From Perna viridis (lineage: Eukaryota): DNA of 64,000 nt. A program made the translations under genes and the position numbers. This document shows, one piece after another, positions 21,101 to 60,844 of this stretch. Position 1 is the stretch's first letter, and each line of letters opens with the position of its first letter. The DNA lies in assembly GCA_037379345.1 (NCBI GenBank), contig CM074521.1, positions 19,554,704-19,618,703 on the forward strand, written 5' to 3'. Below the pieces are notes generated by a model, which was not told where the DNA came from, searched no databases, and was given only the letters and a program-made list of their open reading frames with translations.

Positions 21101-24100
21101 GGATTAAGATGATGTTTCATAACCCTTTACCATGTTCTCTCAACCTGAATAGTTTCCCCTGGACAAAAATGATGCTTCAGTTACCTTCACAAACTTCTCC
21201 ATTTCAAACCAAACCTCAGAACCATGGATTAAGAGGATTTTCTGAAGCCTCCATCATGTTCTCCCAACCACTGGTTCTCCTTAGGTTAAGATGATCTTAA
21301 GAAGCTTCTAATATTTTTCCTCAACTAATGGTTTTCCCTGTATAAAGATAATTTTAAAAAACTTCCACCATCTCCTCCCAAACAGTTGTTTCCATAGGCA
21401 AAGATGATACAGCCAATTATATGCTGCCATTATGTCCTGAAACTAGTACTGCTGAAGGTGACAGAAAATAGTAGTTGTTGCATAACATATTCACATTCAT
21501 CAAATTTGACCTAAATGTATAATTATCTATCAAGTCCTTATTTAAATGCAAAGCTAAAAGGTGTATATAGTGCAGTAATGTGAAATGTCCTTTTTGTATG
21601 GTCTGTTCAATATGTCATGGCTTTTAATTAAGTTAAACCACAGCTGTTGTTGGTTGGTGGTATGACTTGAGCAAGGCATACACAGCTGTTATTGGTCGGT
21701 GGTATGACTTGAACAAGGCATCCACAGCTGTTGTTGGTCGGTGGTATGACTTGAGCAAGGCATCAAGAAGTCAATTTTGACAGCAGTTTCTTTCGTGTTT
21801 TGGCAAAAATTAACTTAAGCTTTAAATGAAACTGTACATGTCTGATGAGGATGACATAAGTTCTGTAATAAATTAGTGAATAGCTAAGTCTTGATTCTAA
21901 CCAGGAATATGGAAAGGCACATTACTCCTAACCTGTCAAGTTAACGTTAAGGTAGTGATTTTCCCGGTGCACTAATTTTCGTTATTTTCATGGGAAGTGA
22001 TTAGGTTTGAAAAATAGTTGTGGCTAAATCACTTATCAAAGTAAAAATCTTAACCTTCCAAAATCTTTTAAAAATGATATATGTCAGTATGCTCATTTCA
22101 CAGGAAAAGGAGGGAACATTATATCATGAAACTAACACATTAACTGTATCTAAAACCCACTGTCAATTACGTTTACCCTCATTTTAGATGCAATACGGTT
22201 CAATTCATGAGGAGGTAAGAAACTTATACTCTGATAGAAGATTGATTCCTTGTGATCCAAATGCTTCTGTCTGTGTCATATATTGTGTGTATTGCTTATA
22301 TACTGAACCATGCACTGCGGTAGTTATTATTATTAATCCTTAAAACAAAAAATAGGAAAAGGGAGACAAGTCTCTATAATTTTTCTAAATATGTGCAAGG
22401 TTTCTTCAGCAATGTATCTAACCATTCTTTGCTGCACACAAATGCACCAGAATCAGTATTTTGTGCATTAGGTCTACTAGAATTTCTATGCTCAATTAAC
22501 TTCAGAGAAAAACAATAATTTGGGAATCTGATCGGTCATCTGGTTTCCTTAGTTACTGCTTTTGGATGAGGCTTAAAATGCTAGTTAATTTGGTGTCCCA
22601 TTAACTTTTCTACATGGGCAAAGGGAAAATCTGCTTTTATGAAAACACTCTGTAGCTTTTAAAATTTAATGAAATATTTCTAGGCTGTACTGGACTTAAC
22701 TATTTTACTTCCTACAAATATTCTTAATTGCAGTAGTTGCTTGTATAAAGGGCATTACCATGATAAATTGACTGCTTAAAGGACGGTGATATGGCCTAAA
22801 ATGTTGATAATGCCTCATGCTGCAGGTTAAAGGCAATATCACTTCCGTAGGGATCATGCCCACTACATAAGAAACTATTGTGTTTTTTGTTCTTTGAAGA
22901 ATCTAAAATGGAGTAACTGATCATTGGAATGATCATTTTGTTAGTGATCATGGGTCAGGCCTGATATACAGTATTGCTGATCCTAAGTCCGGTCCAATTT
23001 TGAAGTTATCATAGGTATAGCCCATTTTATTACCAATTGTGGGTTTCATTGGTTAGGTCCATTTCTTGTCATATTAATGTCAGCTGACCAAACTTGGGTG
23101 AAATAAAACTTGATTTTTTTACTTTTTCCATTTGAGGATCATTTTGACGGAAATCCTTTAATTTTGATGTTTTGAACATATGGCTCGTTCAAGTTGTCAG
23201 TAATTGTTGATTTTAGGAAAACATGCAAGGAAAGAAGGTTTTTAATTTTTACATTTTACCTGTCAAAACTCCCCACAGAAAATGAGATGCAATTAGAATA
23301 GTGACATTTCGTGATGTGACTTAATTTCGTTTGTTTACTTGTACAGCTAAAAATATCAATCTAAAATATGTTGGCTAGCGTAGCATTGTCTGCCTTAATG
23401 GATTGTTAGTGTACCTGAAGAGTAAAGGAAGTTCATGTCAACAATACAAGACATGATGTGGCGTCACACTTGAAAAGGGTCCTATGTAGATTTTACCTAT
23501 TGCTTATCACATTGCTTTTGATATAAAAGAAATTTTTTAAAGATTAGGAATCTTTAAAGTGGTTCAAGTATATACATTCAACACTCAACCTGGTTATCTG
23601 TTCAAAATCTGTGCTAAATGTATTGTGTGACGGATATTATCAAAGTTGTAGCACTGATGTGCAAGGGAATGAAATAGGATCAAATGTGCTGACGGAATGG
23701 GGATATGCAGGGGAAAGGAATAGGATATAATACATTTGGGGAATGGTGATGTACTGGGGAAGGAAACATGATAAAATGAACTGAGGGCAGCACTTGAAAT
23801 AAAATATTGTATGTAATCAACTATTAGATTTTTCATTCACAAATTTATTAGATCTGTGCACACTTTGTTTATTTTCTTTCGTGATTATATAAGCCTTTTT
23901 TATATATTTTCAATGTATGAAATTTTACAAATATACTTGTAGCATTTTTCTTCACTAAGCTTGCTTTAAGCTATTATACATTATATACACTCAAACCTAA
24001 CACAGACATACAGTATGCTGAGTTAATTCCATATACATGAAAAAGTCCTTTTGTATATGGTTCTGTTAAAGTTAGGATAAAAAGATCAGAGCACTTGAGC

Positions 24101-30100: not shown

Positions 30101-33100
30101 GTAAAGATATTTCATCTAATTTCAAGTCAATTTCATCAGAAATGCAGAAATTATGTCATAAGCAGTAAAAAATGTAATGCTATTATCATATAGTATTACA
30201 ATGTTTCCTAGTTTTGACAAGAATAGTACAGAGATTTGTCTTTTAAAAGTACATGTGACTGTATATGTTGTTTTAATTATTTTTGGGTTTTTTTTCAGAT
30301 GAAAACACAGAGCAGGCATTTGCAAAGTTTATGCGAGCTCACAAGTGCTATGATTTGATACCCACGAGTGCCAAACTTGTTATTTTTGACACATTATTAA
30401 ATGTAAGTACTTACAGATTTGAAAAGCATGTGTTAGAATAATATAATCAACAAGAAAACTCACAGCTGATATATAGATGTAGTTTCACAAGAAAATGGTA
30501 GACATTGATCATTGGTTTGAGATGGTGGTGCCATGGAGAAAGAAAGTATTGCATGGTCGAATAATCAGTGTTCTATGATTTTCAAAATTCTAGGTTTTCA
30601 CAGGCAAACTCTAAATATAGATTAACTTTCCTATACTTGAAGTTTGCTTGCCAAACTTATCAAATCATTTGAAAAATCCGAGCTTATTACTTGCCAAAGG
30701 GAAAGTTGGGCATAATATACAGCTCTCTTACACCAAAATTGCACTTTTTCTGAGTGATGGGAAAGTGAATTCCTAGAACACTGCATAAGTTGTAATTAAA
30801 GGCAAAATCTGAATTAGTGATGCCCAGTGAATGAAGTGTCTGTAAGTCAGTGTGTGTCATCTGATTGTCTAGGGTTCTGGGCTGCACTGAGAGTCCCAAA
30901 ACATTCATTTGTCTTTCTGTCTATGTGTCTGTCTTACAGCAGGTTTGCCAGAATTGAAGATTTTGTCCCATAAAGAATTAGGTCACATTAGCTGAAAGTA
31001 TTTGCTAGTTTTGACCAGATATGGAAACCCATTAATTTTTTTATGGTTGCTGATTTTCACAGGTTCTGTGAAGTGAACATGTATGCAGGCATCAATTTTC
31101 CCTATTTAAACTTAGCAAGTGCTACCTATTCGCCACAAAATGTGGAGCAGAGCAATATGTTGGCATTGACATATTTTCTTGTTTCATTTCAAGGTTTTGA
31201 TCTTAACTACTTATCAATGAAATTCAATAGCCCCTATCATGGTATGCTGTCATTTAACAAGTGTTATCTAAAGGGTAATATGTGCATTAGTATGCATTTA
31301 AATAATACTTGTGCACTGGCAGGCAAAAAATCTTCATTGAAAGAAATAATTAACCGATATTGTACCATTTAGATAGAGTTTATTGACAAATGTGGGTTAA
31401 AAGAGTCATAATTGTTGTAATAAAGTTAAAATCAATACACTTTATTGGTAAACTAATATTCTTGGATATTCATTTCTAAATGCTAATTAGGTGTTCTCAC
31501 AAAACTTTTTATTCTTTGTAAACTAAAAGTCTTCAGGAATTGTAGAATAGGTAATAGCAGTGTATTGTCTTTTTCCAGAAACCAATAGCTGAAGTGTTCT
31601 CAAAATATAACAAGAATAGTTATGGTGTATTTGTCAAAGAGACAACAAACCCACTGAGATAAGAATGTCAGCTCAAGTCTCTAAAGTTTGCTTGAAGAGG
31701 GGAGTTGTTTAATCACCCTTGTGACCTAAAGAAATGATCTACTCAATATTTACTTAAGTTAATTTGCTTATAAAATGTACAAGGTTCTACATGTTGAAAT
31801 TCTTAGTACTCCTGTTCTTAGCTGGAATCATGCATACCTGTTAACCCTCCCTATTTAGGAGGGAGACTCCCTCTTTTTGGGTCAATCTGCCCTCTTTTAA
31901 AAAGTCTCACATGTTGGACTCACAAGTCTCCCTCTTTCACAAATTTCTCCCCCAGATCTCTTTCTTAGTAGAAATATTGCACAAATTATGTTCTAAATGA
32001 TAGAAATGACGTAGGCTCATTGATGCCTCTTGATGATATCATATTTGTCCCAATGTTTCATATGATTTAAGCATACATGCTCAGGGATAAAAAGGTACCC
32101 ATCAAATATGTTTATAGATTTTCTAAATGTTGATGAGTTCCAAAAAAAAACCAAAAATAAAAAACACCATTTTTTTGCTGCTAACCTATCTCCAAATCCT
32201 GAACACGGACCTGTAAATTGTCTCTTTCTACTAGTGGTTTCTTGTAACAACATATCAGTTAATTAATGACTTCCATACTTCACCATGACTTGTTTTCCGA
32301 CAACTTTTAGCTCAAGTATCTTATTGTTTTGTTATCTTAAGTTAGATATCTCCTCAATATTGTTATGGGTGGTTGTGGTTTTGTAAATACTTCAGTCACT
32401 TGTTAACTCTCCTAAATGTCAAGGTTATTATCATTAATCTAAATACACTTTTTTCCCAGCAACTTACTACAAAATGTTGTATGGTATTTTGGAATGGCAC
32501 ATCTTCATAATATATGATATAAACAATGCTTTTAGGTATAAAATGCAATTAAAAGTGATACTATGGGATATGTGAACTTCAATCAAATTTTGAAACAGAA
32601 TTATCTATAGAGTGAAAATGAAGTAGTTCACATCATTCATTCCATTACAATATTTCAATCCACATTTTACTGTATGTTTTTCTTGCTGTATGGCACTGCT
32701 CCAAAATGCTGAAAAGGATAGAAATGCATAGATTAATTGTTCTTTCAATTGATACTTTTGTTTTTGGCAGCAGATTATGGCTTGGTTTACACGTTGAAAT
32801 CTCATCATGGTCTTGGCACTATTGTAAATATCTGTTACATTGAATGATTTATCAATCTTTAGGTCTCATGGTTTTCTTGTTTATTTTATGTAGTCAGAAA
32901 CATACAACAATGAAGTTGCTTGATATCTGATGAAGTCGGTTTGAAATGAGGAAAACACTATCCTGAGAATTTGAAAATGTTGTAGGTAACTTCAATGGAG
33001 AGTGAAAAAGACAGGTGGTCATTCTGTACTTGTGAATTTTTACATAGAATACACTACATAGGGATATTTTAATAACTTAGTCTTATTAAGAAAGGTTACG

Positions 33101-39100: not shown

Positions 39101-42100
39101 TTAAACAATCATATTATGCTACATGAGGGAATGAACAGCACCTGGTATTCCCTTTATTGATGTAGAATGGTTAATCAGATATTTGTTTGATGAAACTGTC
39201 CTCCAGGCTTTTCAGATCTAATGGAGAGTGAAATTTCCTTGTTTATCTGTTTACTAGAATCATCCTTGAATGGAACCAGACAATAACTAGGGGTCATATT
39301 AATTGGTACTGCTGACATAAAATCATTTTTACTTTTCAAGGAAGACATTACTTTTATATGAAATATCCTGACCAATATATCATGGCTGACATTTGCTTAT
39401 GATTCTTTTTGATAATTGAACTGCTGATGGAATTCCATTGTTACTTTGTCATATGAGAAGGACAAATATTTTGCTTTAATTAAATAGGCATTCTCTTTAC
39501 TGTATTTGATCATAACTTTAATATGCTTAAAAGAGAGAAATACAGTGGGGCAAAATGGTTCTATCAAAGAGTCATGACATCTACTGCCTAGAATTGACTG
39601 TTCCAGGGGTACATTCTCACTTTATCAACAAGTTAATTTGTCAGTGATTGCTAGGGCATTACAAGAAAGAAAATTCTTTTTACAGCTCAAGTCCTGGACA
39701 CAAAACCGTTCATGAGTTTAAGTCTCTTTCATGAGTAGAGCATAGCCAAACAAGTTCAGATGCTCAACACTTTTGACCTTGTCTTACACGGGTCATATCA
39801 ACTTGCATGAAGGAAGGACAAACTGTTGTTCAACTTGGCATTTCTCTCTCTGTACCATTCTTCTGATGAAACTGATTGTTAGGATATATAATTTAGCAGG
39901 ATGGAACAATTGCAGATTCAGTGGGTTTCAAGAATTGGATCCACCCTTTTCTTTGAAAATTCTTTTTTTTTCAATTCTGTGCAATATTGTGTATGAGCAA
40001 ATAATATCCTGGTACTCCCCTTATATAATTTTTGAAATCTGCCCTTGGAAAATGGATGTGCCCATTGTTACACAAAGGGAAGTTTGTAGTCAAAAGCAGA
40101 ATTCATATCCAGTGGATTGTTACTACTACTAAGACATGCAAGTCCTTTAAGATGTAAATCATGGTTATGTTCTCAGTGGTAACAGCAGTGTCACCATCAG
40201 GTCATTAAACTACTTCATACAGTACAACTGCTTGACAGATTTCCTATTTGAACATCTACCGCTTAATCATTATCCTATTATCATATAGTGTAACCTTAAG
40301 TGAACATACTTTGAACTATTGGCCATGATGGTGATTAAAATGATTAGTAAATTTGGCATTGTAAAAGTTCTGTTTCAGTTCTTGGGTTTGTAGTTGGTTT
40401 TTGTTCCTTTTGGTTCAAATAAACTTTCAAGAGTGAAGTTTTGGATGCTATTGAATCTTTAATGAAAGGCCCACAAGAAGAAAGTGGAAGGTCCTCAATA
40501 AAAAGTATGGTAGGTCCAGGATCTACGTAGATGAAATTTCAGTGGTCCAGTATCAAATAAAGGGGCCTGGACCTGGGAATAGCACTTATTTAATCTGCAT
40601 AGTTTCATAAGACTTCCATATAAACTCAGAGATGAAAGTCTTGCCATTCTTTAGTGAATTTAGTGTAAAGGTTCATATTTATCCATATAACTGATATATA
40701 TTTTTTTTGAAAACATTAAATGAATTTTTAGTCAAAATTCTTGATGAAATATAAATGTTTTATTATGATAGGTAAGGTTATAGGTTATATGGTGGCTGAT
40801 GTAACTCAGAGGTCACTAATATATCTATATGGTGGCTGATGTAACTCAGAGGTCACTAATTTACACCTTGAGTAATTGATCCTTTTGTTAGTGTTTAACT
40901 GTAAATAAAGTGTTCAATTTAGATCATGTGTAGAATGAATGATTCATCACATAATACATCTGTCACATTAACAATACTGGGGACTGATTTAAAAAATGTG
41001 TCGGAAATGTGGTTCAGAAATTGTCCTAAGCTGTGGTCTGTTTCATATAAATCATCAAACCATAAAAAGGAAGATGGTCCCATGTTGATATTTGTCAAAG
41101 AATTATTTAGGATATTAAATATAATTCATGTAAATTAGATGTTTTTGGAATATTTATTTTACTCAGTTCTTAGATGTGCGTTTGAATGTATCATACATTT
41201 GTAGCTAGGTTTTCCTGTAGGAAAAAAACTTTTATCATAATAGATAATTTTAGAAAAGACAGAGTAGTTGTCTAGAATTATTTTGGAATATAACACTTTT
41301 CTGCCTGTTTTCTTAGTTAAATGATAGTTGTAAATGCATTTAACATTTCCCTACAGTGATTCTAAAAGCCTTGCAAGTCAACAAATTTGAAAATAGACAT
41401 AACTTTCCATATCTTTTTTACAGGTGAAGAAAGCATTTTTTGCCCTTGTATATAATGGTGTACGGGCAGCACCCCTCTGGGATAATTCTAAACAAGACTA
41501 TGTAGGTAAGTACATGTCCTATACTGAAAATTAACAAAATTACCTATCCATTATCAAGTCAAGTCCAAAATAAATCTGACAAAATAGATATGACACCACC
41601 AGAACAGCTGGTACCTCAATGATTCTGACTCTTCCATTGCGGTGTGAATATACTGGTGGTGATTTAATAGTTTTTGGATGCTATAGTGTGAAGAGGTACA
41701 ATTCTTACCTCCTGAACTCTTGATGTTTTCTTGATGTTTATACCCAGGCAACCAATTGATTTCTTCTTTGTTTAGGTAAGATTATATCTGTATTTGTGAC
41801 ATGTCTATTAGTTATCTTTTTATCATTCCAACTCCTCTCAAACTACTAGATAGAATTTCAAGACATTTGTTGGTCATGTAAAGAAATAAAATGTTTTTGT
41901 GCTTATTACTAAGACTTTTTTTATCCCTGAAATTTTGTGGGAGTTAAGGCCCTTTGAACTTACTTTTTTTAATGCACTACTTAAACATCTTTTCAATGAA
42001 ACCCTTCTAATGATAAAGTCAAAGGTGTTCAAATTGTGAAATTTGCACATTCAATTTATGAAAATGTCTACCTTTAAACTTGATAGCTCCTCCAATGTGG

Positions 42101-45100: not shown

Positions 45101-48100
45101 AAAAATTTATTGTACACCAAAATCTGATGTTATCTTGCTGTCAATCTAAGGTTTTGTGCAAAATTTTCTTTAAAACCTGAAAGATCAGATAAGCAAGAAA
45201 AATAACAGTGCACTTACATTTCACAAAAATTTATGAGGTCAGAGATTGCATAATCGTGAAGAAATTGCACTTTGTTGATAGCCTGGAGCCAAGGACATGA
45301 TACAAGATCTTTCCATGCTTCATTTTGTGCTCTGTACACCTGGGTTAGGTGAAAATTTCATTAAATTCTTGTCCTCATTAACAGGTTTTACACCTGCATT
45401 CAATTACAGTGGAAGAAATTAATTTGTTTACTTTCCCGTAGCCTCTCTTTGGCAACTCTTTTCCTGTACTGTAAGCTGCGATCAAGGTTACTTATGACAC
45501 AATTCAGCTTCAAATTAAAAAGAGGTCATTGACAAAGTTATATTTAGTTCAGATCAGTGAATATTACATTGAAAGACCACAATATAAGGATCTATTGTTG
45601 TAAAATTGGATATTTTAACCAGCAGTCTTAACAATTATTGTCAAGCTTTAGGCTTATAACAGATTGTATGGATTGCAAGTCTATGCACTTAAATATTCTG
45701 TTCTTGTGCTGTCTGAGTTGTCTAGTGGCTGCCTCTTCCATGTGGGACATCCTGCATGGGTTTTGTTCTTGACAAAGTCATCCCAAAGAAATGGGTAGTC
45801 ATTAATTCTCCTTCAAGCATATGCAAATAGTAGATAGAGTAATTAAGAAATAAATCACGGGAACTCCATTTTATCATTGTTTTACCATGGGTTGGCCATT
45901 TAGGTAGATTGTTTACCCCGAGCAATAGCTTGGGGTTAAATAGTGACATATATGGCTAGCCTGTGGTAGAACAATGATAAAATGGAGTTTCTGTGATTCA
46001 TTTCAATTCTAATGTTACAGGTTTCTTCATACTAGTATTATTTAGTAGACACAGCCTATGCAGTCCTTTCCTTCGAAAGTCTCAGTGACTAGCCCGAATA
46101 ATAGAGGACTGTGTAGGATTCAACTAGCCCGAAACTAGAAATGTACACATCATTCCACAAGCCCTAATCAATTTTTAATAGCCCCGGGCTTCGGGCTAGT
46201 GGCTAAAGGCGAGCACTGCCTATGTGTTGCACGAAATGTTTGTCATGTGTTTATCACTCTTTTACCATAACTGCTTAGCTTGTCTGAATGGGGATGACAT
46301 GCTTACTGTAGACTTGCTTTCGTGAGCTAGCTCATTCAAAATCAGCCTGGTTAAATGCAGTATCTGTGCAGTTGAATAGAATTTCTTTTCCTAAAATGCA
46401 TGAACACAGTGTAAAACTACAGTCATTTAAACGATATTCAGTATGTACTTTTTTTTTATTTTATTCATTCCAGTAGAAGGAAAAGAATTGGCTATGTTTA
46501 AAATACCAAAACTACAGCTGGAGTTGTATATTTAGTATGACTAAAAATAGTTTTCAAATTGGCATCTACATTTGAAAAGCTTTTTAACATATCTATGGTT
46601 TCTATTATACTAAATTCAAGATACTGCTCCGTGTACATTTAATATGTTACTTATTTAATTTTGTTCCTTACATATTTACATGAATAAATATCACCTATCG
46701 ATTTTTTTTCTATTTGCAGGAATGCTGACGATCACAGACTTCATATTGATTTTACATAAATACTATAAATCTCCTTTGGTAAGCATGTCAAGCTAGCCTT
46801 TAAAAGATCTGACCAAATTGGTCTGAATGGGAAAAAGCGGGGTTGTTTGCTCCTGCGATTGATTTCCTGTTTTTCTATATAATCAACCTAATTTTTGGCG
46901 CATAGGTCTCATTGCATCTTCCTATTGAAATAGTGAAGTGGGACCTGATTAAAAGGGGGTTATAAAGTCAATGAGAGATAGAGAGCTTAGGTCTAGTTCC
47001 ATGATAATCCTTTGGACAATTGGATGTATGTGAGGTCAAGATCTAAAACTGGTGTATATTGTCTTGTGGTCATTGGGAATATATTAAGAGGCCTTGCCTG
47101 AATACACTGCTCTCTGGCATGCTAACATTTGAGATGATTTGACATGTTAAATGTTAAGTCAGTGTGGATAGGAGTGTTTAAAGGAGGGGCAAGTTCCTTG
47201 GTCATAGGTTAAAGTTGAAATAGTAGAAAGCAATATGAAAGTAAAGGCAATCCCAAATTGGGGGAAGAGAGGGGCCAATGGTGAATGTTTGGGACAAAAG
47301 TAATTCCAAATTAGGAGAAGAGAGGGGCCAATGGTGAATGTTTGAGACCAAAAGTAATCCCAAATTGGGAGAAGAGTGTGGCCAATGGTGGATGTTTGGG
47401 ACTAAGGTACTGTAATCCAAGATTGGGAGAGGAGAGGGGCCATTAGTGAATGTTTTAGACAAATGCAATTCTAGAGAAGAGAGGGGCAATTATTGAATGT
47501 ATTGGGAGAACTTACTTTGAGTACAATTTAGATGTGTAGCCTTAATGATATATCTGCTTGATAACTCCTCTTAAATAGTGAAAGTTATGTCATTTTAGGT
47601 AAATGGAAATAAGTTTAATTCCAAAAATGATTACCTGCATTTGCATTGACTACTTTTGACTAAAATTACATTATTTGATAGGATTTATACACGCACAACG
47701 TAAGTAAGGTAACTTAAGTGTACTAGATTACTTGAACGACCCGCTGATTATTTGATTTTAAATTTCTTACTTGGACGAAAATGTAATGGCATATGGCCTT
47801 GTTAAGATAGAATATTTTAACACACATATAAAGATGTTATCAAATCTCAAGCGTAGAAAATTGCATAATTTCCCATTTAACTCTGTTTACTGCATCAGTG
47901 ACGTGAAAAATTGTGCAGTTTATTTAGAGTATAATGAGGTTTTTGTAGTTTTTGCTGAAGTTTTATCAGTTTTTAGGGTTATTTTTACGGATTAGGTAAA
48001 TGTTGACATATCATGACAGATTATGACTACAAAAATATATTGTAATTTGATGTTATCTATTTTTGTCATTTTGCTACTTAGCTACAGATTAGGTTTAGTA

Positions 48101-51100
48101 TCATAGGGAAGTAATAAATAAATGCAGTTCCCTATCATATTTATCTTTCACAAGTGTATAAAAGTTGACTTGTATTTTTGGTGTGGCTATAAACATGATT
48201 GAAGTCATGATAGATCCTGGATGGGGAGCATACTAAAAGTTAGTACCTAGCACAGCATAGTATTTTATCAGATATTATTATCTTGGTTGCTATTGAGCTG
48301 TGACAGATTATAGTGAAACTTTGTCAGACCTCTGGAAGAGCTTTGATGACCTTGTATTAGTAGACACTTCAAGTTTTGTTCTACATTATAATGTAGATTA
48401 CGTTTTTTGTTTCATATGTAGCCAGTTGCTATTGGAGCTCATCCATACAGCTTAATACTGATGTCCCACACAGTTTTAAAGGCTGGATATTATTTTTTTC
48501 AATTACCCATCCAGTATGGATAACAAATGTTAGTTACCGCCTTCTAAACAAAAATGTTTCTGGGATATTGTAACCATTTTGCCTGTATATCTGTCGGTCT
48601 GTCATTCCATAACATCCTTCTAAATACTCCAATGGACTTGATACGTACTTACTCCATAGGAAATTTAACACAATTTTGAGTCATTTTAGCATTTGGGAGT
48701 CACTCATAATTTTGCCTTCATTTCAATTAGAAATAGTTTGGTGTCTCACATAATTTGTTATTTTATAATTCCAGGTTAAAATGGATGAATTAGAGGAGCA
48801 CAAGATTGCTACATGGCGAGGTAAGTTTATCATAACAGAATATATGTGCAGTACAGGGTCAGGATTTCAGTATCAAAGAATGGAAGGTCAAGGTCCTGAA
48901 GAGATTTAAACCCAAAGGGCATACAAAGGTGTGGAAACTCTTTTTAGGAATCTTTAAAATGGACAGTTTTTTATTAATAATCACTCATTTCAATGCATCT
49001 AAATACAGAAGGATTCAAATCATTTGTAGTCTCAATGTTAAAGATGAGAAAGATCATGGTCCTCAAACTATTTCTGGTGTGAATGGACTATTTGTCATTG
49101 TGCTATTTCATTGGCAACATCATCATTTTCCCTTTGTTTATACTGCTGATATTTTCTATCCCTGGCTACTGCTTTGGTAGCAATATCGTATGAGTTGTTA
49201 CCACCTTGTTGGTCATGGGGTCCTGTGCTAGCCTGATGTGGGGGAGGTGGTTGGTTTCAATCCCCAGCCATGTCACAGGAATCACTTCAAAATTGGTAGT
49301 CAGTCTTGACAACTGATTGGCTTGGAGAAATGATAATGTATCTGAAAGTAGGGTGGCATGCCTACCTGTTGGCTGTTGCTTATGTGAGGAAGCACAATAA
49401 ATGTCCCTCTCAATGTTTTGGAATAGTACAAACAGGGTCTGATCAATTGTTCTGGTCCTGAAATGCATGAAATATCTGCCATTTGACATCATAGTAAGTA
49501 ATAAATAATCAATCATATGAATTGGCTGTGACATCACAATGTAAATTTTAAATGAGTCCTTGCCCTGTTATTTCTGAATTTTTTTTCAGTCTTGACTTTA
49601 AAACTGCCGTAATTCTATATTTTTCTGTCAGTCAGCAACGTTTGTGCTCCCAGGAGAATTGAACTGATTTTGATCAAACTTGGTATGTTGTATACAATGT
49701 TTAACCATCAAGTAAAAATCTCAAATTTGGAAAATGGTCAAGTTATCTTATTTCTTTGTGATGAAAGAAAAAAAGTTTTTGTTTTTTTTTTTTGGTTTTT
49801 GTTTTTTTTTAAATATCCAATAACTACTAAGGAAACAACTTAAATACAAAATCTGATCACATTACCAATTTTTTTAAGCCGTGAAGTTTTCAGTGCTGTT
49901 CAGGCATTTTCAGTGTAATAAAGCTCAGACTCTGTGACCCAGTTCAAGTTGTCACGATTCTCTGTTTATTTTAGATTCAATTTCTAATAATATTCTTAGT
50001 TTGTACATATCATGCTTCGCCTGTTGTGTTATTGAATTCCCCAATCAATGAAGGATCAGATGGCTTTTGTCCATGACATGGAAAATATATTTGAGAAAAC
50101 AGTCTCAAGATGTATTTAATCTAGTTTTGTTGGGATAAAACCAACTATTTTTGACATCTGCAGGTTTCATTTCCTGTCTAAGGGTCATACTTAAGGATAA
50201 AAAACATGTATCTGAACAAAGTTAATTTAAATTCATATATCAGGTGTACCCTATAGCTAGCTTCACCATTGTTATTATGAAACATTACAGAGCTTTTTTC
50301 CTGTAAGGTTAATAACTCCTGGGTTTAATGTTTTAAAATTTAGATTGCAGATTTATTCTGCTGTCTGCATTCCCTCCATTGTTATGGTTCAAGTCACAAA
50401 TTTTTTAAAAAGTATATTATTAAATAAAAAACGTAATACCCATCATTTTCCTGTAAACAACATTTTTTTGTAAAGAAATTATTTGTGGATAAGAAGGACC
50501 AAAAACTACTATTAATACCTGCAAAAATTATTCCTGATGCAATGAAACATTACATTCTTTCCATAACCACAAATGTATTTAACAGAATTCATTTTTACAG
50601 TAATAATTTAATTTGATTTGTAATAAGCCTTTTGATTGGTTGATTCTTTTGGGGCAAAATTTGTTATTTTGTATTAAGTTATATGGCGCTATGACATCAT
50701 TAACATTGATTGGTCCGCAGTCTGTGATTCAAATGATCCTGAACTAAATAATGTTATGACTGTATTTGGTTGTAAATTAGATTTTAAGTAGTAGTCTTTG
50801 TAAGAATCATGCAAAATCTGTAAAATGTGATATACCTAAAAAAAAAAGGCTACATATTTTTATTTTTGATATTAAGTTGATTTATGGGTCTATATTCTGA
50901 AATGTGTAATTATTCATTCCAATCTGTCTGCTCTTAGGAGATAATTCACATTGAAAATCTAATAGATTCTTTTGTATTTAAGTGCCATTTACAGAGTTAT
51001 CTCCCTTAATTTTTAAATCTACAATGCATTTTATATAATTTTTATCCCCTAAGAGCATGGGGTATTTGAAAAACCAACTGGTAATTTCTGTTTACTATGG

Positions 51101-54100
51101 CATTTCAAACAAAATATGAAAAATAAAAATATGTAGGTTTTTCACCCATGAATCACCTTTTGCATGATTCGTAGCCGAAGTACTACTTAAGTATTGTTTT
51201 TTAATTATTTGACCCTGTTTTGCTTCTAAAACCAACTTTGGGACAATTTACAATTGTTCATAAACTGTTTTGCAGTTTATACATAAAGTATTAATTGCCT
51301 CAAAGTTGGTTCTATTGAATAACTTGGTAAAACATTTAAAAAAAAATTCTTAAATAAACAATAATCTCATTTTGAATTTTTGTTTCTAATGTAAAAAATG
51401 GTACTTTCTTGTTTTTCAGAGGCACTATCAGAGAAAATCAAACCATTTGTGTTTATAGAACCCGATGCTAGTTTATATGACGCTTTAAAGACATTGATTA
51501 ATAATCACGTTCATAGACTTCCTGTGATAGACCGTGTGACTGGCAACGCCCTCTACATTCTTACCCATAAACGCATACTTAGGTTTTTATATTTATGTGT
51601 AAGTATCCATAGTATATAATCCATGACTGCATTCCATTTTTAAGAAAAGTAGTTTTTGCCAAATTCAGCTTTCATTTAAAACTTCATAAGGATAGTTAGG
51701 TGAAAAAGAAGTTGCTTCTTAGAAGGCAAAAAGTCATTGAGTTTTGAGTCAATTTAGATGAGATACCTGTCAGTTTTTTCAAATCAATTTTGTGGGAAAA
51801 ACTTCTTAGTTTCAAAGGTTACTCAGTTTCAAGGTAATATGGATGTGAAAACCTATTATTGTCAAGCCAATATGATGGAGATATTTAACTTAGTGGCTAC
51901 CACTCTCTCAAAAAGTGTATTCTGCTGTAAGGAGACTAAATGGCAGCAATTTATTTCCATGCTTTTTCTTGCTCCTTAAAGTATAAAAAAGTTGGTTTGA
52001 AATGTATCTCAGTCTGTTCACATTGCTTATTATGTGTATTTTTATTTTTTTTTTCAGATTAATGAATTACCTAAACCAGGTTTTATGAGTCAGACCTTAG
52101 AAGAGCTTAACGTAGGAACATTTGATAATGTGATAACGGTTCGTTATAGTTTTATGTTGCATAATTTGCAAATGTACTTTAATTCATGAGTGTCCATTAT
52201 AATAGTGCAATCTTTTTACGAAATTTTGGTTAACTTGTTAGGTACAACTTTGTGAATGTCATTTGGAATTGGATTTTGTGTGGGAAATACATGTCGCCAA
52301 CATTTTCATTTCTACTTGTAGCGACTCATGGTAACTGCAAAAATGTTTACTCTAGTTCACAATAGTACATTGTATTAGGGTATGCTTGTTTAAAAAATGA
52401 AAAAGTGACAGGTGCATTAAGTAATTTTCAGTTTCTGTAAAATTAAATACTACATAAAATAAAGAAAACGTGGTAGCATTGTTAAAAGACCATCAAATGA
52501 GGATTGAGTTGTGCTATGTTATATATCCATTTGTGTACTTTAATGGTTTGAATTACAGATGAAGATTTCAGTTAACCATGACTGGAGACATGTTGTAGAA
52601 CTATTGTTTTATCACACATGCCTAAAAACACAAAAAAACCCATTTCTTTGCTATTTCTGTTTCAGGCCAAAACCTCCACGCCTGTGATAGAAGCATTAAA
52701 CATGTTTGTAAACCATAGAATATCAGCAGTTCCAGTGGTAGATGACCAGGGAAAAGTTGTTAACATTTATGCAAAGTTTGATGTTATTGTAAGTGGATAT
52801 TAGTTTTTAGTACCATACATGTACAATATTCAATCTCTTCAACAGATTCGGCATCAATTTCACAGAAAGTCGTAAGTTTAGAGTTTGTCATAAGTTATGA
52901 CATCACAATACTTTTATCTGCTATAACGTCATAACTTAGGACTAATTTTACAACTGCGATTTTTTGTGAAAGGAACCCCAGGTATCACTACACTAAATGT
53001 GATAATTTTCCAATAGAATTCACTGGACTAATTTTAGATCTTCTGGTGTACCATACTTTTTGACACAAAGAGATGGAGTTGTATGATGGATATAGCAGGG
53101 GTTTACAAGTTTGGAAATAGTGAATACATAGTTTCATTTGTGAATTTGAAGTTATTCAGCTTTCTTTTTTCTTTATATTGAACACATGCTAATACCAAAA
53201 ATACAACATTGATATAAAAATGGTAAATTCGACACGTGATGCTCCAAATCACTCAAAATCAGGACAATTTAAATAAAGTCCACTTATTTTTAAGAGACAC
53301 TTGGTGATGAATTTAAATTTAATACCAGCAGGTGGTATATGTAGTAAGTAAATAGTAATCAAGGGAACCTGGTTTTTAATGGAAAATCAAAAGCTTGTTA
53401 TCCAGGGACAAAGACCAGACATGGAAAACAGACAAACAGAACAAACAGAACAAAGAATATTAAATATACAAAGTGACAAAAGTAAACAAGTAACTGACCC
53501 CACCAAAAACTGGGAGCATGGAACAGATGCACCGGTAGGTTTAGCGCCCTCTGCTTTTCTAGAAACAACAAATGACCAGTTTGCTATATTGTACACTATT
53601 ATTAGCAGCAGTGTAACCTATCTAAACCAAACCCAGAATTTACTGGGAACTTGTCCAAACCAGACATCTGAGGGCTTACAATGTCACTTTCAATGCATTT
53701 TATACTTGTGTAACCGGAACGCCTGCCTTAAGTGATCAAATCTTTCGGTTCAAAAAAGGTTCAGATTAGACAGGTTTCACTGTATATTTGAAGTTAATAT
53801 TAAGATACTAAACCTCTGTGTTTTATTCTACAGAATCTAGCAGCTGAGAAAACCTACAACAATTTAGATATCACATTAGAACAGGCTCTTAGACACAGAC
53901 AAGAGGTAAGACTGACATCAACTATTCTGCTCAGGGTATAGTTGCCCCTCTTGATACATTTGTACAAATGTAGTTTCAAAATATCATCCATATGATACTT
54001 AATAGGGGCAGTGTACTACAGCACATTCACTGGGTGAACTTGACATTTCATGGGGTATGGGAAATGGGGCATGGGGTGCAGGGAATGGCAATCTGGAATC

Positions 54101-57100: not shown

Positions 57101-60100
57101 AAAACAGGAAAGTAGGAGGCAATATTTACTACTGACATACATGTACATGTAGGAAAGGGTTAAAGGGTCAAAGATTGAGAAGTTTTTACACTCTTATTTG
57201 TACTTCTAATTATGCTACTTGATCATTTTCTCATATAAGAACTCATAATTTCTCACGATTTCAAAGTGAAAGAGGAAACCACTAAACCATTCATCGATAC
57301 TTAAATGTTCTAGGAAGGAAACAAGATTATTTGATGATAGAGTAAAAGGTACTCACCGACTTAAACAATCATACTAGATATTCAGCCTGTATGGTTTGAC
57401 ACAGTACAGGGTCATCTGAAGTGTTAACAGGGATGTGGGGGATGGTCTGGAAGGTGGAAAGATGCATTTAAAAAATTTAAATAATCGATCAATTTTGGGC
57501 ATTTTTGGACGTGTGCTGACTTGATACTCTACAAATTTCACTTTCCAGAACAAATGAGACATTTTCTCAATTAATATTGGAGAGTATTAATTATCAGGAA
57601 GTTGATATACTTGTTTATATAGATCTTCTGCACTGTGGATTTTTAACTGTTTATGATAAACACATTTTGGCACTTGAAATTTTGATCTGTTATGTATTGA
57701 TTATATAATGGTAACCCAAAGTGCCTAACTAAGATCAAGTTTCTAATCCAGTTCATTGGTGGTATGGATTGGTTCGATAACTTGGTACATATTTTAGTTT
57801 CCAAGTGCTAGTAAGGCATTTTACCACTTGAAAGAATATTGAAGACAAAGTAAGAAACTACTGGCTTGTTCTCTCTATATGCATATACTTTTATGTGAAA
57901 TAAAAAAGGGAGGATTTGCAGGGTTTTAACATAAAATTTTGGCTTGGTTGCCCACAAGTAAATTTTGCTAGCCAATATGTATAGTTCTTTATAATGACAG
58001 AAATTTGAGTAGCCCACACCAAAATTCAGGGCTATTGACGAGTTGGTCCCTGCTAATTTCAAACCCTGATTTGAACCTTGATTTTCACAGCCCGATTTTA
58101 TATCTATAGCAAATAAATATATGGTTTATACATGAACTGCCTTTGTCTGTCTGTCTGTCCAAATACTTTGAAACCACACTTATGCTTAATAATTCAAGGA
58201 ATGATGATCATGGCTTTGAATGCAGCAAAGTTATCACAAAATGTTGGCAAAGGGAGATAATCCAACTTTGCAGTTTTACATGATGCAAGCAATTCATTTA
58301 CACTTAGTGTTCAGTTGAGATTTTTTAAGTGCCCATGATTGCCACATTTCAGTAATTGAACTAGAAAACTTGATTTGCCAAACTGAGATAATACTTCTAA
58401 TTCAATTTCTATCATAAGCACAATTTCACTCAACAATTCCAAGGCAAATCTCCCGCTTTGGAAAAAAAATGTGAGTGGTAGATATCCCATTTTGTAATAT
58501 TCAAAGGTTAACACCTGAATAAGTTTTAAAATCAACTGAGTATTTGAAATATGCATCGCATAATTGAGATGATTTTTTTATTTTTTCATTGTCAGAAAAG
58601 ATGATACAGTCATTCAGTAATGATTGTGTCCTGCTAAAACATTAATCTGTGACATTAGTTGTTATGGCAAAGTTTCATCAATTTATCTTTATTTTTAGGA
58701 GAGTTGGTTTGAGGGTGTGGTTCATTGTCTCATCACAGACAAGCTAGAAGATGTAATAGTAAAATTGGTGCAAGCCGAGGTTTGTATATACTGTATTAAA
58801 TGAGTAACTAAAAAATTCAGAACCTGCCAATGATAGAGATGATACAAGGTGCAAAAAAACCATCAAACAAAGAATGCAGTCAACATCTTTACATAAACTA
58901 TAGTTCTTTCTGTATATAGTTGTGAATTTTTTAGAAGACCTTACATTCCTAAGCAAAACAAGAACAATATCTCTTGTAACATGCCAATTTTTGTCTCAAA
59001 AGTACAATAATTGAATGACATTAAAAGTAGTTATGTGATCTGTGTTTCTGGATAAGAAATATTGAAAATATAGAATATAGTTCTTGACTCGAATCATCTC
59101 CTTACCAACTGCTCCAAATTAACATATGGAGAATATCACAAATACATGTATTGTTACTCCTGACATAAGCATACACTTTTAACCATGTTCTGTGAACTCA
59201 AATGGTGTATGGGCTTTTTGGGTTCTCTACTTTTAAATCATCCCACAGATAATCACAAGCCGTAGAGCCATAGAAAGCTATTGACTTACTGGTGAACAGC
59301 TTGTATTCATGCTTTGTGGTTAATTAATCTATAATGGTTGTAATAATGATATGTGCAACAAAACTGTAAAAAAAATACTCAGGTCCTAGAATATTCTAAA
59401 CTTGCTACGTGACTCCAATCAAAGCCTTGGAATTTCATGACAATATCTAAGTTATTTTTTCAAGTTTTATTATGCTGGGTTTACTTGAATAATGATATAA
59501 TCCTAGTTATCAGCATATTGCAAAACCTCTTTGCAGTCTCATGGGTAGCATTCTCGCCTTGAGTGGGTAAGGCATTGGGTACAGGGTTTGGGAGCAGAGC
59601 TAATTTTATTTTTGAAACACTCGTTGACATCTGTATATGTAAGGAAGTAATGTTTTCCTCTTTTTCCTTCAGGTCCATCGACTTGTTGTCACAGATGAGA
59701 ATGACCATGTGAAGGGCATTGTATCTCTGTCTGATGTTCTGACATTCTTAGTTCTTAAACCAATGGGTATGTACTGAAGTTAATCTTAGTTCTCAAACCA
59801 GTGGATATGTACTGAAGTTATTCTTAGTTCTCAAACCAGTGGATATGTACTCAAAGTCATTCCTAGTTCATAAACCTATGGGCAGGTACTAATGTCATTC
59901 TTAGCTCTCAAAGCTCATTTGTACATGTATTCAAGTTAATTGAATTCTCTTAACATTTGAAAGGTACTCAAGTATTTCTTAGTTCTCTGACTAGTGGGTT
60001 TTCTAATAATTTAAACAGTTTTCTATCTTGTATAAATTAAAAAAGATGTGGTATATTGTATAAAAGGGGAGATAAATCAATTTTTGTTGTTAATTACTAA

Positions 60101-60844
60101 GAAAAATATTCTGGATGCCTATTCATATGATACTGTTGAAGTATACCATTTTAAAATGTGCTTGTTTTATCCAGTTTTACCCACACAAACACTTACTTTC
60201 CCATCCACACAGCTCGTATTGTTTACTTTTTTATTGTTTAAAGTTCTTGTTTTACTAACTTAATTTTTAAATGCATGTTCCTATATTGACTGCAAAAAAT
60301 TAATATAGGAAATGAATCTCTTTGAAATTGCACCACAAGGTGTCACACCACCAAAGGAAGGCTTGGAATTATTTTGGGAGTTGTGACTAAACCCATATAT
60401 ATAATTAAGGGCTAAAATGGACCAGAAACAAGCATTTACCTGATTTCCATATGATAACTTGAGTAAAAGGAAATGGATCTTTGAAATTGTTCCACAAAGT
60501 GCCATACCGCAAAAGTAAGTTGGGGATTGATTTTGGTGGCAGTGACTAGGACCGTTTAGGAATTTAGGGCCAAAGAGGGGCCATTTCCATACCAGTCAAA
60601 AGTGTAATTCTGTTCCAATTGTCGAATCACAATCAAACATAAAAGCAGTATCGATCAAGCTTGAATTGTGTTTTCATGATGGCCCTAATTGGTGGGTCCG
60701 TGTGGTCATATCAATCTGCTTCCTGCAGAGCATTTCATTATTTAAGTTGCCATATCTTTTGCATCATCCCAAATTGTGTGTTTAAAGTATATTTATATTG
60801 TGAATGTTTATTTTTCAGGCTTTGAGCCAACCAAAAAATCTTGA
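141..60844 (+). CDS. PRKAG: 5'-AMP-activated protein kinase subunit gamma (4 CBS domains), spliced, 5'-partial: join(141..177,18648..18757,24711..24756,30299..30402,41424..41505,46720..46778,48775..48820,51420..51598,52058..52138,52666..52788,53834..53905,58699..58779,59673..59766,60819..60844)
   Basis: Manual splicing at GT-AG sites gives 1140 nt open to TGA. The product has the diagnostic AMPK-gamma motifs [107 protein letters not shown] and SLSDVL. It cannot be assigned to vertebrate paralogue 1, 2 or 3 from sequence alone. Confidence 0.97.
3571..3734 (+). mobile_element. dispersed retroposed-type repeat, family R copy 1 (5'-truncated)
   Basis: Aligns by eye with 17691-17853 and the reverse complement of 53351-53510. 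Shared 3' end ggttcccttgattactctt. Confidence 0.8.
3899..3928 (+). CDS. candidate 30-nt cassette exon ([10 protein letters not shown]), phase 1/1
   Basis: Acceptor atttatgtatttcag and donor GAG|gtataa (weak). 3n length, open in the gene frame. Confidence 0.35.
4118..4153 (+). CDS. candidate 36-nt cassette exon ([12 protein letters not shown]), phase 1/1
   Basis: Acceptor caactctctttag and donor CAA|gtaaga. 3n length, open in the gene frame. Confidence 0.35.
6760..7154 (+). mobile_element. ~395-bp non-autonomous TIR element (MITE family A), TTAA-flanked
   Basis: TIR gtagc...taagaatcatgcaaaat / attttgcatgattctta...gctac with TTAA on both sides. Two more full copies in the window. Confidence 0.9.
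8816..8977. mobile_element. short element of the CAGGGGCGGATCCAG-TIR type
   Basis: Right end ctggatccgcccctg, decayed left end. Relatives at ~3323-3454 and ~38144-38328. Confidence 0.55.
9921..9960 (+). CDS. candidate alternative first coding exon [13 protein letters not shown] (or 3' part of a 78-nt cassette exon 9883..9960)
   Basis: aaaaATGA start context, 13 codons +1 nt, donor TAA|gtaagt. Phase 1 matches the acceptor at 18648. Confidence 0.6.
11157..11565. repeat. 60-bp minisatellite, ~7 copies
   Basis: Unit tcatagtattgggccctggcatatacattgtatctcatggattccctcta(t/g)agaaatctg stacks vertically in the 60-column layout. Confidence 0.95.
12763..12789. repeat. (TG)13 microsatellite
   Basis: Read directly. 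Confidence 0.95.
15262..15575. repeat. ~52-bp minisatellite, ~6 copies
   Basis: Unit aacttagaagggatcagcctatgagccaggtggatc..tataggctgtgta. Confidence 0.9.
16076..16099 (+). CDS. candidate 24-nt microexon (xYSFQPNF), phase 1/1
   Basis: Long T-tract with a TGC before actag, donor TTC|gtaagt. 3n length, open in frame. Confidence 0.5.
16759..16807 (+). CDS. candidate alternative first coding exon [16 protein letters not shown]
   Basis: ATG with G at -3, 16 codons +1 nt, donor CAA|gtaaga. Phase 1 matches 18648. Confidence 0.4.
17615..17853 (+). mobile_element. dispersed retroposed-type repeat, family R copy 2 (longest, structured 5' core)
   Basis: Same family. 13-bp closing stem 17615-17627 / 17703-17715. 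Confidence 0.8.
18648..18757 (+). CDS. PRKAG: PRKAG exon ([37 protein letters not shown])
   Basis: Strong acceptor ttttcttctttttcag, open frame, CpG-retaining relative to the intron, donor CGG|gttagt (phase 0). Alternative in-frame donors exist after 18751 and 18766. Confidence 0.8.
19135..19810 (+). mobile_element. decayed Helentron-like element with internal tandem units
   Basis: Short (gtc) microsatellite then repeated ggggcca..gggg / ttgattttgg units. Related fragment at ~60280-60590. Confidence 0.45.
20312..20654. mobile_element. CpG-rich TIR element with GGCC ends, possible 3-bp TSD (ACA)
   Basis: ggcctaaaaa..tgtgtttctggtaac / gttactggaaacaca..tttttaggcc, internal ttagggtcggt repeats. 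Confidence 0.75.
20740..21410. repeat. degenerate ~125-bp tandem repeat with shorter subunits
   Basis: ggattaaga at 20976, 21101 and 21226, recurring aagatgatgtttc. Confidence 0.8.
21638..21764. repeat. 42-bp tandem repeat, 3 copies
   Basis: cacagctgttgttggtcggtggtatgacttgagcaaggcat. Confidence 0.95.
22188..22214 (+). CDS. candidate 27-nt microexon (MQYGSIHEE), phase 0/0
   Basis: Acceptor gtttaccctcattttag and strong donor GAG|gtaaga. Fits the phase-0 intron 18758-24710. Confidence 0.65.
24711..24756 (+). CDS. PRKAG: PRKAG exon ([15 protein letters not shown])
   Basis: Acceptor ctgttttctgtctttttcag and donor TAG|gtaagt. Acidic pre-CBS segment in phase with 30299. Confidence 0.9.
25047..25586. 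mobile_element. TA-flanked TIR/foldback element with internal inverted repeats
   Basis: (ta)cactccttgagacgttcacgtttcct / aggaaacctaaacatctcacggaatg(ta). CpG-rich tgcgtttaaa repeats inside. Confidence 0.7.
26846..27525. repeat. 39-bp minisatellite, ~17 copies
   Basis: Unit ggttgacaatagatctctcatatctcagtggtcatt... It generates the 230-aa repetitive ORF. Confidence 0.95.
27574..28694. mobile_element. CAGTGTTCTAGGA-ended TIR element containing a nested Helentron-like repeat
   Basis: cagtgttgtaggatt ... aatcctagaacactg. A shorter relative lies at 30566-30783. Confidence 0.65.
27766..28148 (+). mobile_element. Helentron-associated (HINE-like) non-autonomous element with two ~150-160-bp internal repeats
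   Basis: T-run start tttttattgcccc, short (gtcc) microsatellite, tandem units starting at 27827 and 27975, end gcgggggacat. Family assignment is from recalled mollusc HINE architecture. Confidence 0.6.
30299..30402 (+). CDS. PRKAG: PRKAG exon ([35 protein letters not shown])
   Basis: ttttcag acceptor, gtaagt donor, conserved CYDLIPTS motif. Confidence 0.97.
34928..35043. mobile_element. hairpin-type MITE
   Basis: tttctgtattc.gatctt...tctcccact / agtgggaga...aagatc.gaatacagaaa. Half copy at ~33365-33435. Confidence 0.65.
35046..35254. mobile_element. TACTGT...ACAGTA-type MITE
   Basis: Colinear with 62643-62850 (tactgtgaaagta...cacgaaattt.gttccca). Confidence 0.65.
38013..39086. mobile_element. 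decayed pogo-like TIR element with internal insertions and a 33-bp array
   Basis: agtaaacctgtctttagtgacc ... ggttgctaagacaggtttgactg(ta). Confidence 0.55.
38342..38547. repeat. 33-bp minisatellite, ~6 copies
   Basis: Unit caggttattgctgaatacaggtggtcactaaga. Confidence 0.93.
40786..40860. repeat. 40-bp tandem duplication
   Basis: tatatggtggctgatgtaactcagaggtcactaat twice, perfect over 35 nt. Confidence 0.95.
41424..41505 (+). CDS. PRKAG: PRKAG exon, CBS1 ([27 protein letters not shown])
   Basis: ttttacag acceptor, gtaagt donor, [10 protein letters not shown] motif. Confidence 0.98.
42638..43031 (-). mobile_element. MITE family A copy, inverted
   Basis: Reverse complement of 6760-7154, TTAA flanks. 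Confidence 0.9.
45847..46004. mobile_element. palindromic MITE with ~55-bp arms
   Basis: gaaataaatcacgggaactccattttatcattgtt / aacaatgataaaatggagtttctgtgattcatttc. Confidence 0.8.
46720..46778 (+). CDS. PRKAG: PRKAG exon, CBS1 ([20 protein letters not shown])
   Basis: tttgcag acceptor, gtaagc donor, MLTITDF motif. Confidence 0.98.
47248..47510. repeat. ~53-bp purine-rich minisatellite, ~5 copies
   Basis: aatcccaaattgggagaagagaggggccaatggtgaatgtttg. Confidence 0.9.
47682..47699 (+). CDS. candidate 18-nt microexon (DLYTHN), phase 0/0
   Basis: Branch-like tgactaa, acceptor ttatttgatag, donor AAC|gtaagt. In frame within the phase-0 intron 46779-48774. Confidence 0.5.
48775..48820 (+). CDS. PRKAG: PRKAG exon ([15 protein letters not shown])
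   Basis: ttccag acceptor, gtaagt donor, ELEEHKI.TWR motif. Confidence 0.98.
49200..49515 (+). mobile_element. degenerate tRNA-derived SINE
   Basis: B-box-like ggtttcaatccc, a central block (actgattggcttgga..gataatgtatctga..ggtggcatgcctac..ctgttg..gtgag..agcac) resembling the conserved central domain of bivalve SINEs as I recall it, and an (aatc) tail. Fragment at ~46280-46350. Confidence 0.6.
50788..51186 (+). mobile_element. MITE family A copy
   Basis: Colinear with 6760-7154, TTAA flanks. Confidence 0.9.
51420..51598 (+). CDS. PRKAG: PRKAG exon, CBS2 ([60 protein letters not shown])
   Basis: gtttttcag acceptor, gtaagt donor. Overlaps track ORF 51398..51619. Confidence 0.98.
52058..52138 (+). 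CDS. PRKAG: PRKAG exon ([27 protein letters not shown])
   Basis: T-tract plus cag acceptor, ACG|gttcgt donor, LPKP..M..TL.EL.VGT motif. Confidence 0.95.
52666..52788 (+). CDS. PRKAG: PRKAG exon, CBS3 ([41 protein letters not shown])
   Basis: gtttcag acceptor, gtaagt donor. Overlaps track ORF 52618..52803. Confidence 0.98.
53351..53566 (-). mobile_element. dispersed retroposed-type repeat, family R copy 3
   Basis: Reverse complement reads tttctagaaaagcagagg...ccggtgca...ccatgctccc...ggttcccttgattactatt. Confidence 0.8.
53609..53782. mobile_element. CAGT-ended Tc1/pogo-like MITE
   Basis: cagtgtaacctatctaa ... ttagacaggtttcactg(ta). Confidence 0.7.
53834..53905 (+). CDS. PRKAG: PRKAG exon ([24 protein letters not shown])
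   Basis: ttctacag acceptor, gtaaga donor, [12 protein letters not shown] motif. Confidence 0.98.
54859..55204. mobile_element. MITE sharing family A TIRs but with a different interior
   Basis: ttaagtgtcagtctttgtaagaatcaggca ... tgcctgattcttacaaacacttacactta. A more decayed relative lies at ~63439-63786. Confidence 0.75.
58699..58779 (+). CDS. PRKAG: PRKAG exon, CBS4 ([27 protein letters not shown])
   Basis: tttatttttag acceptor (tandem TAG-GAG), GAG|gtttgt donor, WFEGV..C motif. Confidence 0.93.
59673..59766 (+). CDS. PRKAG: PRKAG exon, CBS4 ([31 protein letters not shown])
   Basis: tttttccttcag acceptor, TGG|gtatgt donor, VHRL and SLSD motifs. Confidence 0.97.
59746..60000. repeat. 38-bp minisatellite, ~7 copies, first unit spans an exon/intron junction
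   Basis: tcttagttc(t)caaacca.tgg.tatgtact.aagt units at 59746, 59784, 59822, 59861, 59899 and 59977, plus a degenerate unit near 59940. Confidence 0.9.
60819..60844 (+). CDS. PRKAG: PRKAG last coding exon (GFEPTKKS*)
   Basis: tttatttttcag acceptor, phase 1, TGA at 60842-60844, followed by apparently non-repetitive UTR-like sequence. Confidence 0.8.

Follow-up and report, generated by a model that had tools for sequence, protein, structure and literature searches.

The usual view of AMPK gamma holds the CBS core to be invariant and places isoform diversity in paralogues and N-termini. An intron interrupting this core in the mussel Perna viridis raises the question of whether splicing can vary the core itself. 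The intron holds an 18-nt stretch that resembles a cassette microexon, and the original prediction took it to insert six residues into the nucleotide-sensing core. All positions below refer to the window, the whole stretch of 64,000 nt that was analysed.

The AMPK gamma gene in the window

The window contains most of the gene, which lies on the + strand and is AMPK gamma (PRKAG), as had been predicted; the assignment rests on a four-CBS core, homology to gamma1, the exon-by-exon mapping of Mytilus PRKAG proteins over the window, and spliced contigs. The exon at 51422-51598 matches human gamma1 with an E value of 4.5e-21 and has its nearest relatives in Mytilus (95%). The CBS2 exon, placed at 51420..51598 by the human gamma1 match and contig joints, has one match in the genome; the AMPK-gamma gene is single-copy and the mussel's only one.

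The other core exons, likewise on the + strand, were delimited in two ways. Contig joints together with Mytilus matches place the CBS1 exon at 41424..41505, the exons at 52058..52138 and 53834..53905, and the CBS3 exon at 52666..52788. Mytilus protein matches place the exon preceding CBS1 at 30299..30402, the start of CBS4 at 58699..58779 (its end read from the sequence), the CBS4 exon at 59673..59766, and the last coding exon, which ends in FEPTKKS and a stop, at 60819..60843. The exon at 52058-52138 has an unusual donor, GTTCGT (52139-52144), that is confirmed by spliced contigs, and at 59740-59912 the end of the CBS4 exon and its donor are repeated in tandem as four to five copies of 38 nt, with AT instead of GT in the next two copies.

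The gene has a second microexon of 27 nt (22188..22214, + strand), encoding MQYGSIHEE, which is the counterpart of an optional 10-residue segment of Mytilus isoforms; it is preceded by a 73-nt AG-free zone and CTAAC, without TGC. Counterparts of the 'ETAK' insert of a second mytilid-like protein cluster and of the Mytilus segment 'NVLRLTIG' were sought in the window and neither was found. In two proteins of the second cluster (P0005 and P0137), DIEDL is followed, shortly ahead of the core, by an optional segment of four residues, for which no counterpart was found in 24757-30298.

Anatomy of the candidate exon

The 18-mer lies at 47682..47699 on the + strand, between TAG and GTAAGT, in phase 0/0, and encodes DLYTHN, exactly as first described. 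Upstream of it is a 59-nt exon (46720..46778) that contains the end of CBS1 and closes with YYKSPL; downstream is a 46-nt exon (48775..48820) that begins VKMDELEEH and is orthologous to the start of human PRKAG2 exon 9 (V336). Both flanking exons are on the + strand and are supported by spliced contig joints and Mytilus protein matches. The 18-mer has the form of a cassette microexon: it falls within 3-27 nt, has AG/GT flanks, keeps the frame and is stop-free. One DNA search with the surrounding 241 nt returned a single copy in the genome, which rules out a repeat origin of the element.

The signals on its two sides differ in quality. The donor (47700..47705, + strand) is strong, in line with the prediction; it is the sole GTAAGT of the 1996-nt intron and has the top score among its 126 GT sites, 8.7 bits under a matrix trained on 14 exons of the same gene, in which the donor of one row was misplaced by 3 nt. 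The acceptor TAG (47679-47681) has 10 pyrimidines in 20 positions, the lowest count among the 14 exons tabulated (13-18 in the others), and with a score of -2.8 it is not among the top 12 of the intron's 130 AGs. The acceptor of the homology-supported 27-nt microexon of the same gene scores -3.8, near the candidate's value.

The 3' splice-site region (47613..47681, + strand) combines an AG-free zone, two TGC motifs, a branch-like TGACTAA and a weak pyrimidine tract ahead of the TAG. The AG-free zone measures 66 nt and is exceeded by those of two constitutive exons in the same gene (97 and 112 nt). TGACTAA occupies 47657-47663, about -25 to -19, and branch-like sites overall span -36 to -20. 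The predicted TGC motifs are present, at 47636 and 47642 (-46 and -40), but they are located upstream of the branch-like site, outside the place usual for SRRM3/4. Local retention of CpG, also put forward in the prediction, is weak: the 7 CpG in 47650-47949 are matched by 3.2% of 300-nt windows, and this interval was picked afterwards. The signal was judged insufficient to count. By themselves, the splice signals would make the candidate a weak call.

Expectation by chance

How often such a configuration arises by chance was estimated with criteria set after the candidate had been seen: a stop-free, in-frame exon no longer than 51 nt that combines YAG, a GTAAGT donor and 20 nt free of AG. Five such strict candidates occur on the + strand of the window and two on the - strand, where GTAAGT as such is found 23 and 18 times, respectively. 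One hundred shuffles gave a mean of 1.23 per 64 kb (maximum 5), or 0.038 per 2 kb, a figure that falls to 0.008 per 2 kb when TGC and a branch-like site are added and rises to 0.275 per 2 kb when any GTRAG donor is admitted. One strict candidate somewhere in the window is thus expected by chance, and one in a given intron is not.

These figures bear directly on the reading that, in AT-rich DNA, a weak AG merely happens to be followed after 18 nt by a GTAAGT, that the pair is never spliced, and that the slot, as we call the insertion site at this junction, is empty in the mussel lineage. A coincidence of this kind is possible, though on the unlikely side. The motif is common, shuffled sequence yields about 1.2 strict candidates per 64 kb, the - strand has two, loose candidates turn up in unrelated introns, and the acceptor is weak; against this, an intron this long would be expected to hold only 0.008-0.04 strict candidates. 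Taken alone the candidate is modest, and its support is raised because its position is the very junction that holds inserts in other species.

Four further frame-preserving GTAAGT candidates are seen in the window (8194-8202, 16076-16099, 10886-10897 and 53329-53343). The first, of 9 nt, has a strong UCUC-rich tract, and the last is inside a high-copy repeat and likely due to chance; for these, protein support was sought in Mytilus isoforms only.

Transcript evidence in the mussel

Contigs were taken from 4 of 24 listed sequencing runs, which have no RNA or tissue label on record; three of them behave as spliced RNA, since their contigs join exons at GT..AG. Six introns of the AMPK-gamma gene are joined in this way. 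The original prediction had named 46778>47682 and 47699>48775 as the junctions to look for. Among the joints listed, contigs of three of the four runs connect 46778 directly to 48775, skipping the exon, and the fourth run has no joint there; no joint to 47682 or from 47699 is among those listed, contigs being prone to lose rare forms. Unspliced, low-depth contig pieces (X1 and X2) cover the candidate and are uninformative on inclusion. Skipping as the only form among the joints listed is what a chance pairing would give.

Optional inserts at the same junction in other animals

The prediction also proposed a search of mollusc proteins for residues inserted between KSP and MDELEEH, and this search, extended over database isoforms, shows that in molluscs and other animals the junction does hold optional in-frame exons. 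An exact-junction in-frame insert is present in 7 of the first 120 homologues. In a set of 590 proteins, deliberately enriched for inserts, 446 skip, 114 have extra residues and 30 are unreadable; among the 114, two are 2-residue offsets in divergent sequences and two are doubtful vertebrate predictions. In 12 species, inclusion and skip forms are paired within one species at the exact junction, with inserts of 4-15 unrelated residues; the isoforms stem from automatic annotation, which is silent on level and tissue.

Cluster listings provide pairs in the clams Mya (11 residues), Ruditapes (7) and Dreissena (5) and in the snails Littorina (11), Babylonia (11) and Pomacea (13). Gigantopelta has four forms with 0, 4, 9 and 13 residues, generated by two tandem mini-exons, DAKT and DLKVERAFL (proteins P0322, P0436, P0437 and P0440). 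An insert-profile search adds pairs in the ribbon worms Lineus (14) and Tubulanus (15), the brittle star Amphiura (9) and the sea anemones Nematostella (6) and Actinia (7). In Mercenaria the insert is present in all nine members listed, without a skip partner among them, and inserts without a listed skip partner also occur in three named annelids and further contigs.

Insert DNA in three transcript-like contigs neither begins with GT nor ends with AG in any case, which identifies these three inserts as cassette exons rather than shifted splice sites. A shifted donor or acceptor was also rejected as the source of most homologous inserts, only 2 of 26 of which start with V; these two (Exaiptasia and one contig) were left out of the test of composition. 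The insert peptides have no motif in common beyond a frequent D or E at the start (15/26). D comes first in 10 of 24 distinct inserts, compared with 2.2% of random post-AG peptides, and DLYTHN also starts with D. Tyr occurs in no known insert, and the composition of DLYTHN scores -1.3 bits, and 23% of 1155 random peptides score higher; with a favourable D and an unfavourable Tyr, it is neutral overall.

The intron is found at the same place and phase in seven genomic contigs of other animals and in human PRKAG2, and the sequences indicate that it is old. The seven contigs hold only loose candidates, which are uninformative; loose candidates appear in unrelated introns too. Many contigs that are insect- or crustacean-like, to judge by sequence likeness, read straight through the junction and have an intron right after the next exon, which suggests that the intron was lost in these lineages. 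The mussel candidate fits the slot, in which a short in-frame exon of phase 0 lies within the intron that separates ...KSPx from xxMDELEEH, and may be the mussel version of it, position being conserved while sequence and length are free. That at least 12 other species carry optional exons in this very intron speaks against a chance pairing, as does the initial D, while the neutral composition of the peptide sits well with one.

Lineages without an insert

No insert was seen in the Mytilus cluster members listed (15 of the cluster's 72), including the longest M. californianus isoform, X1, nor in any of nine anchored members of the second mytilid-like cluster; among short proteins, no mytilid inclusion form appeared in the 120 of 169 matches listed. 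The listed isoforms of scallop, oyster, abalone, octopus, a cuttlefish-like sequence, the heterobranch snails Biomphalaria and Physella, a unionid, a chiton, Lingula, amphioxus and Ptychodera are without an insert as well. Because scallop, oyster and mytilid isoforms are listed without one, pteriomorph bivalves may have no exon in the slot, as a chance pairing would have it. DLYTHN itself occurs in none of the 590 proteins of the conservation check and resembles none of the known inserts. A metagenome scan (80 of 109 loci) returned no mytilid genomic contig. The statement that no such exon is known in vertebrate PRKAG genes is supported: 96 of 101 vertebrate-type sequences skip, three are unresolved or without an anchor, and two have doubtful predicted inserts (P0382, labelled 'low quality', and P0383) that are likely annotation artefacts.

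Position in the protein

The site is the loop immediately after CBS1 in Bateman domain 1, where the prediction had put it; this follows from alignment and the Littorina models. With numbering from alignment to solved structures, the insert falls between L103 and V104 of human gamma1. Human PRKAG2 c.1006 is given as the base with which exon 9 begins, in codon V336 (PMC5445094), and the mussel junction corresponds to the border between human exons 8 and 9, M335|V336. PRKAG2 cardiomyopathy variants at S333P, M335, V336A/L/I and L341S flank the junction, in a region called a likely hot spot (PMC11395525).

AlphaFold models of a natural isoform pair from Littorina, whose fold matches AMPK gamma1 structures (TM 0.95 by target), have helices and strands in the same order in both forms. 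The insert (residues 99-109) lies in the loop that leads from the last helix of CBS1 to the linker helix, with intact helices on either side and a pLDDT below 50; this low value may stem from a shallow, divergent alignment as much as from true disorder. If the mussel exon behaves alike, inclusion would add six residues to a predicted flexible loop and leave the fold undisturbed.

The phrase 'within the nucleotide-sensing core' is correct as to the core position in Bateman domain 1 but overstated, as the site is a surface loop and CBS3, not CBS1, is the AMP sensor. CBS1 is reported to contact neither alpha nor beta, CBS1 mutations to have no or small effect, and nucleotides at sites 1, 3 and 4 to be coupled (PMC6274893). 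For these reasons, a role in fine-tuning or partner binding appears more likely than an on/off switch, and the insert may also have no role. A tuning of the AMP/ATP response is a plausible hypothesis, given the human disease variants to either side of the junction. At M335|V336 (human gamma2 numbering), the length of the loop could alter how the helix that ends CBS1 packs against the linker helix and, in turn, how Bateman domain 1 is coupled to the AMP-sensing network. The missing conservation of sequence and length is as compatible with a tolerant loop as with a switch.

A decaying or neutral remnant of an ancestral optional exon, with trace inclusion in a tolerant loop and no regulatory role, would explain part of this picture: inserts of 4 to 15 residues lack a common motif, many lineages have no insert, the model treats it as a disordered loop, and CBS1 is not the sensor site. 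We judge this distinctly unlikely. In cnidarians, echinoderms and several lophotrochozoan phyla an in-frame exon has persisted in the slot or has been regained, in Gigantopelta as two tandem exons, and the residues to either side of the junction are affected by disease variants in human gamma2.

Interpretation and significance

Overall, the 18-mer is probably a real exon in some form. This estimate is a judgement: it starts from a prior of roughly one in five for the slot to be still filled in a pteriomorph, applies a tenfold likelihood ratio for the signals, and allows some discount for the contigs. For the fuller proposal that it is a regulated, mostly skipped cassette microexon of AMPK gamma, the balance tips only slightly in favour. 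Inclusion would then likely give a minor gamma isoform with modestly changed regulation or partner binding.

A broader reading ties these strands together, although as a whole it is unlikely and is offered tentatively. A splice-controlled switch of loop length at the end of CBS1 would have existed since before the cnidarian-bilaterian split, providing single-gene invertebrates with tissue-specific gamma isoforms of different nucleotide response, its position fixed and its sequence free. Vertebrates, with gamma1-3, would have dropped the exon and many arthropods the intron; the hot spot at M335/V336 would reflect the same sensitive hinge, and the mussel 18-mer would be an unannotated member.

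A literature search on AMPK gamma splicing and microexons, with supplementary microexon tables and splicing databases beyond its scope, found no description of the slot, and a study of Mytilus AMPK (PMC9777882) makes no mention of splicing. Microexons as such are a known class, and automatic annotation already contains the inserts of other species. From the sequences compared, the slot appears to be undescribed, old, and conserved in position while labile in sequence, with the mussel 18-mer probably a further member. An optional exon at a core junction, from sea anemones to clams, offers natural insertion variants for testing the CBS1-CBS2 linker in AMP/ATP regulation, a question raised by the cardiomyopathy variants at 335/336. 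It is also a case of a microexon slot that is conserved in position, not in sequence, and present outside bilaterians. Should the mussel exon be a product of chance, the cross-species slot would still stand on database isoforms.

Comparison with known systems

The mussel genome encodes an eMIC-bearing Srrm234 gene (G000:C9:2026242-2086882; loci L084, L089 and L090). Its cwf21 domain is at G000:C9:2026419 (E 1.4e-7), and, on the same strand, positions 3-56 and 53-67 of SRRM_C, the eMIC domain, are matched by two frames some 57-61 kb further downstream, with E values of 5e-4 and 1e-4; each match scores under the whole-domain cut-off, the domain being split over two exons. Near this gene, L085:1008-1541 contains a reverse-transcriptase fragment, presumably LINE-like. 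Elsewhere, two identically scoring cwf21 matches stand 7.7 kb apart (G000:C2:47309370-47317134), perhaps a tandem or assembly duplicate. The candidate exon could be used in a tissue or stage outside the four runs, and neurons are one candidate because the genome encodes Srrm234 with an eMIC domain.

In flies, eMIC-dependent exons are described as having a weak acceptor, a long AG exclusion zone and a good branch point, and the origin of eMIC microexons is placed in bilaterian ancestors (10.1101/2021.02.24.432780). In humans, UGC is reported between branch point and AG in 74-79% of SRRM-dependent microexons, where it is not strictly needed (10.1101/2024.09.17.613571). Like the neural microexons of the SRRM3/4-eMIC system, the mussel candidate is short (18 nt) and frame-preserving, has a weak acceptor, a long AG-free zone, a branch-like site and a strong donor, inserts into a protein loop, and has Srrm234 in the same genome; the acceptor and AG-free zone are a weak argument, given the longer zones of the two constitutive exons. 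Unlike them, it has no TGC in the stretch from the likely branch point to the AG, and the equivalents of the slot reach 45 nt, are unconserved in sequence and are present in sea anemones. The sea-anemone inserts would on this comparison predate the bilaterian eMIC programme or have arisen apart from it. The mussel candidate, if real, may be an eMIC exon, with the odds leaning against, and is not filed as one here.

Closer likeness is found in annotated AMPK-gamma pairs such as XP_052804303.1 and XP_052804294.1 of Mya, XP_032241438.1 and XP_032241440.1 of Nematostella, and XP_072029494.1 and XP_072029495.1 of Amphiura. These share with the mussel 18-mer the identical junction, after YYK/T..P.x and before.MDELEEH, whereas their inserts have other peptides and lengths and the 18-mer is without annotation or transcript support. 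Finally, variants of the CBS1-CBS2 linker in human PRKAG2 (S333P, V336A/L/I, L341S and H344P) affect the same junction and its neighbouring residues; these are point substitutions that cause cardiomyopathy, whereas the mussel candidate would be a splice option.
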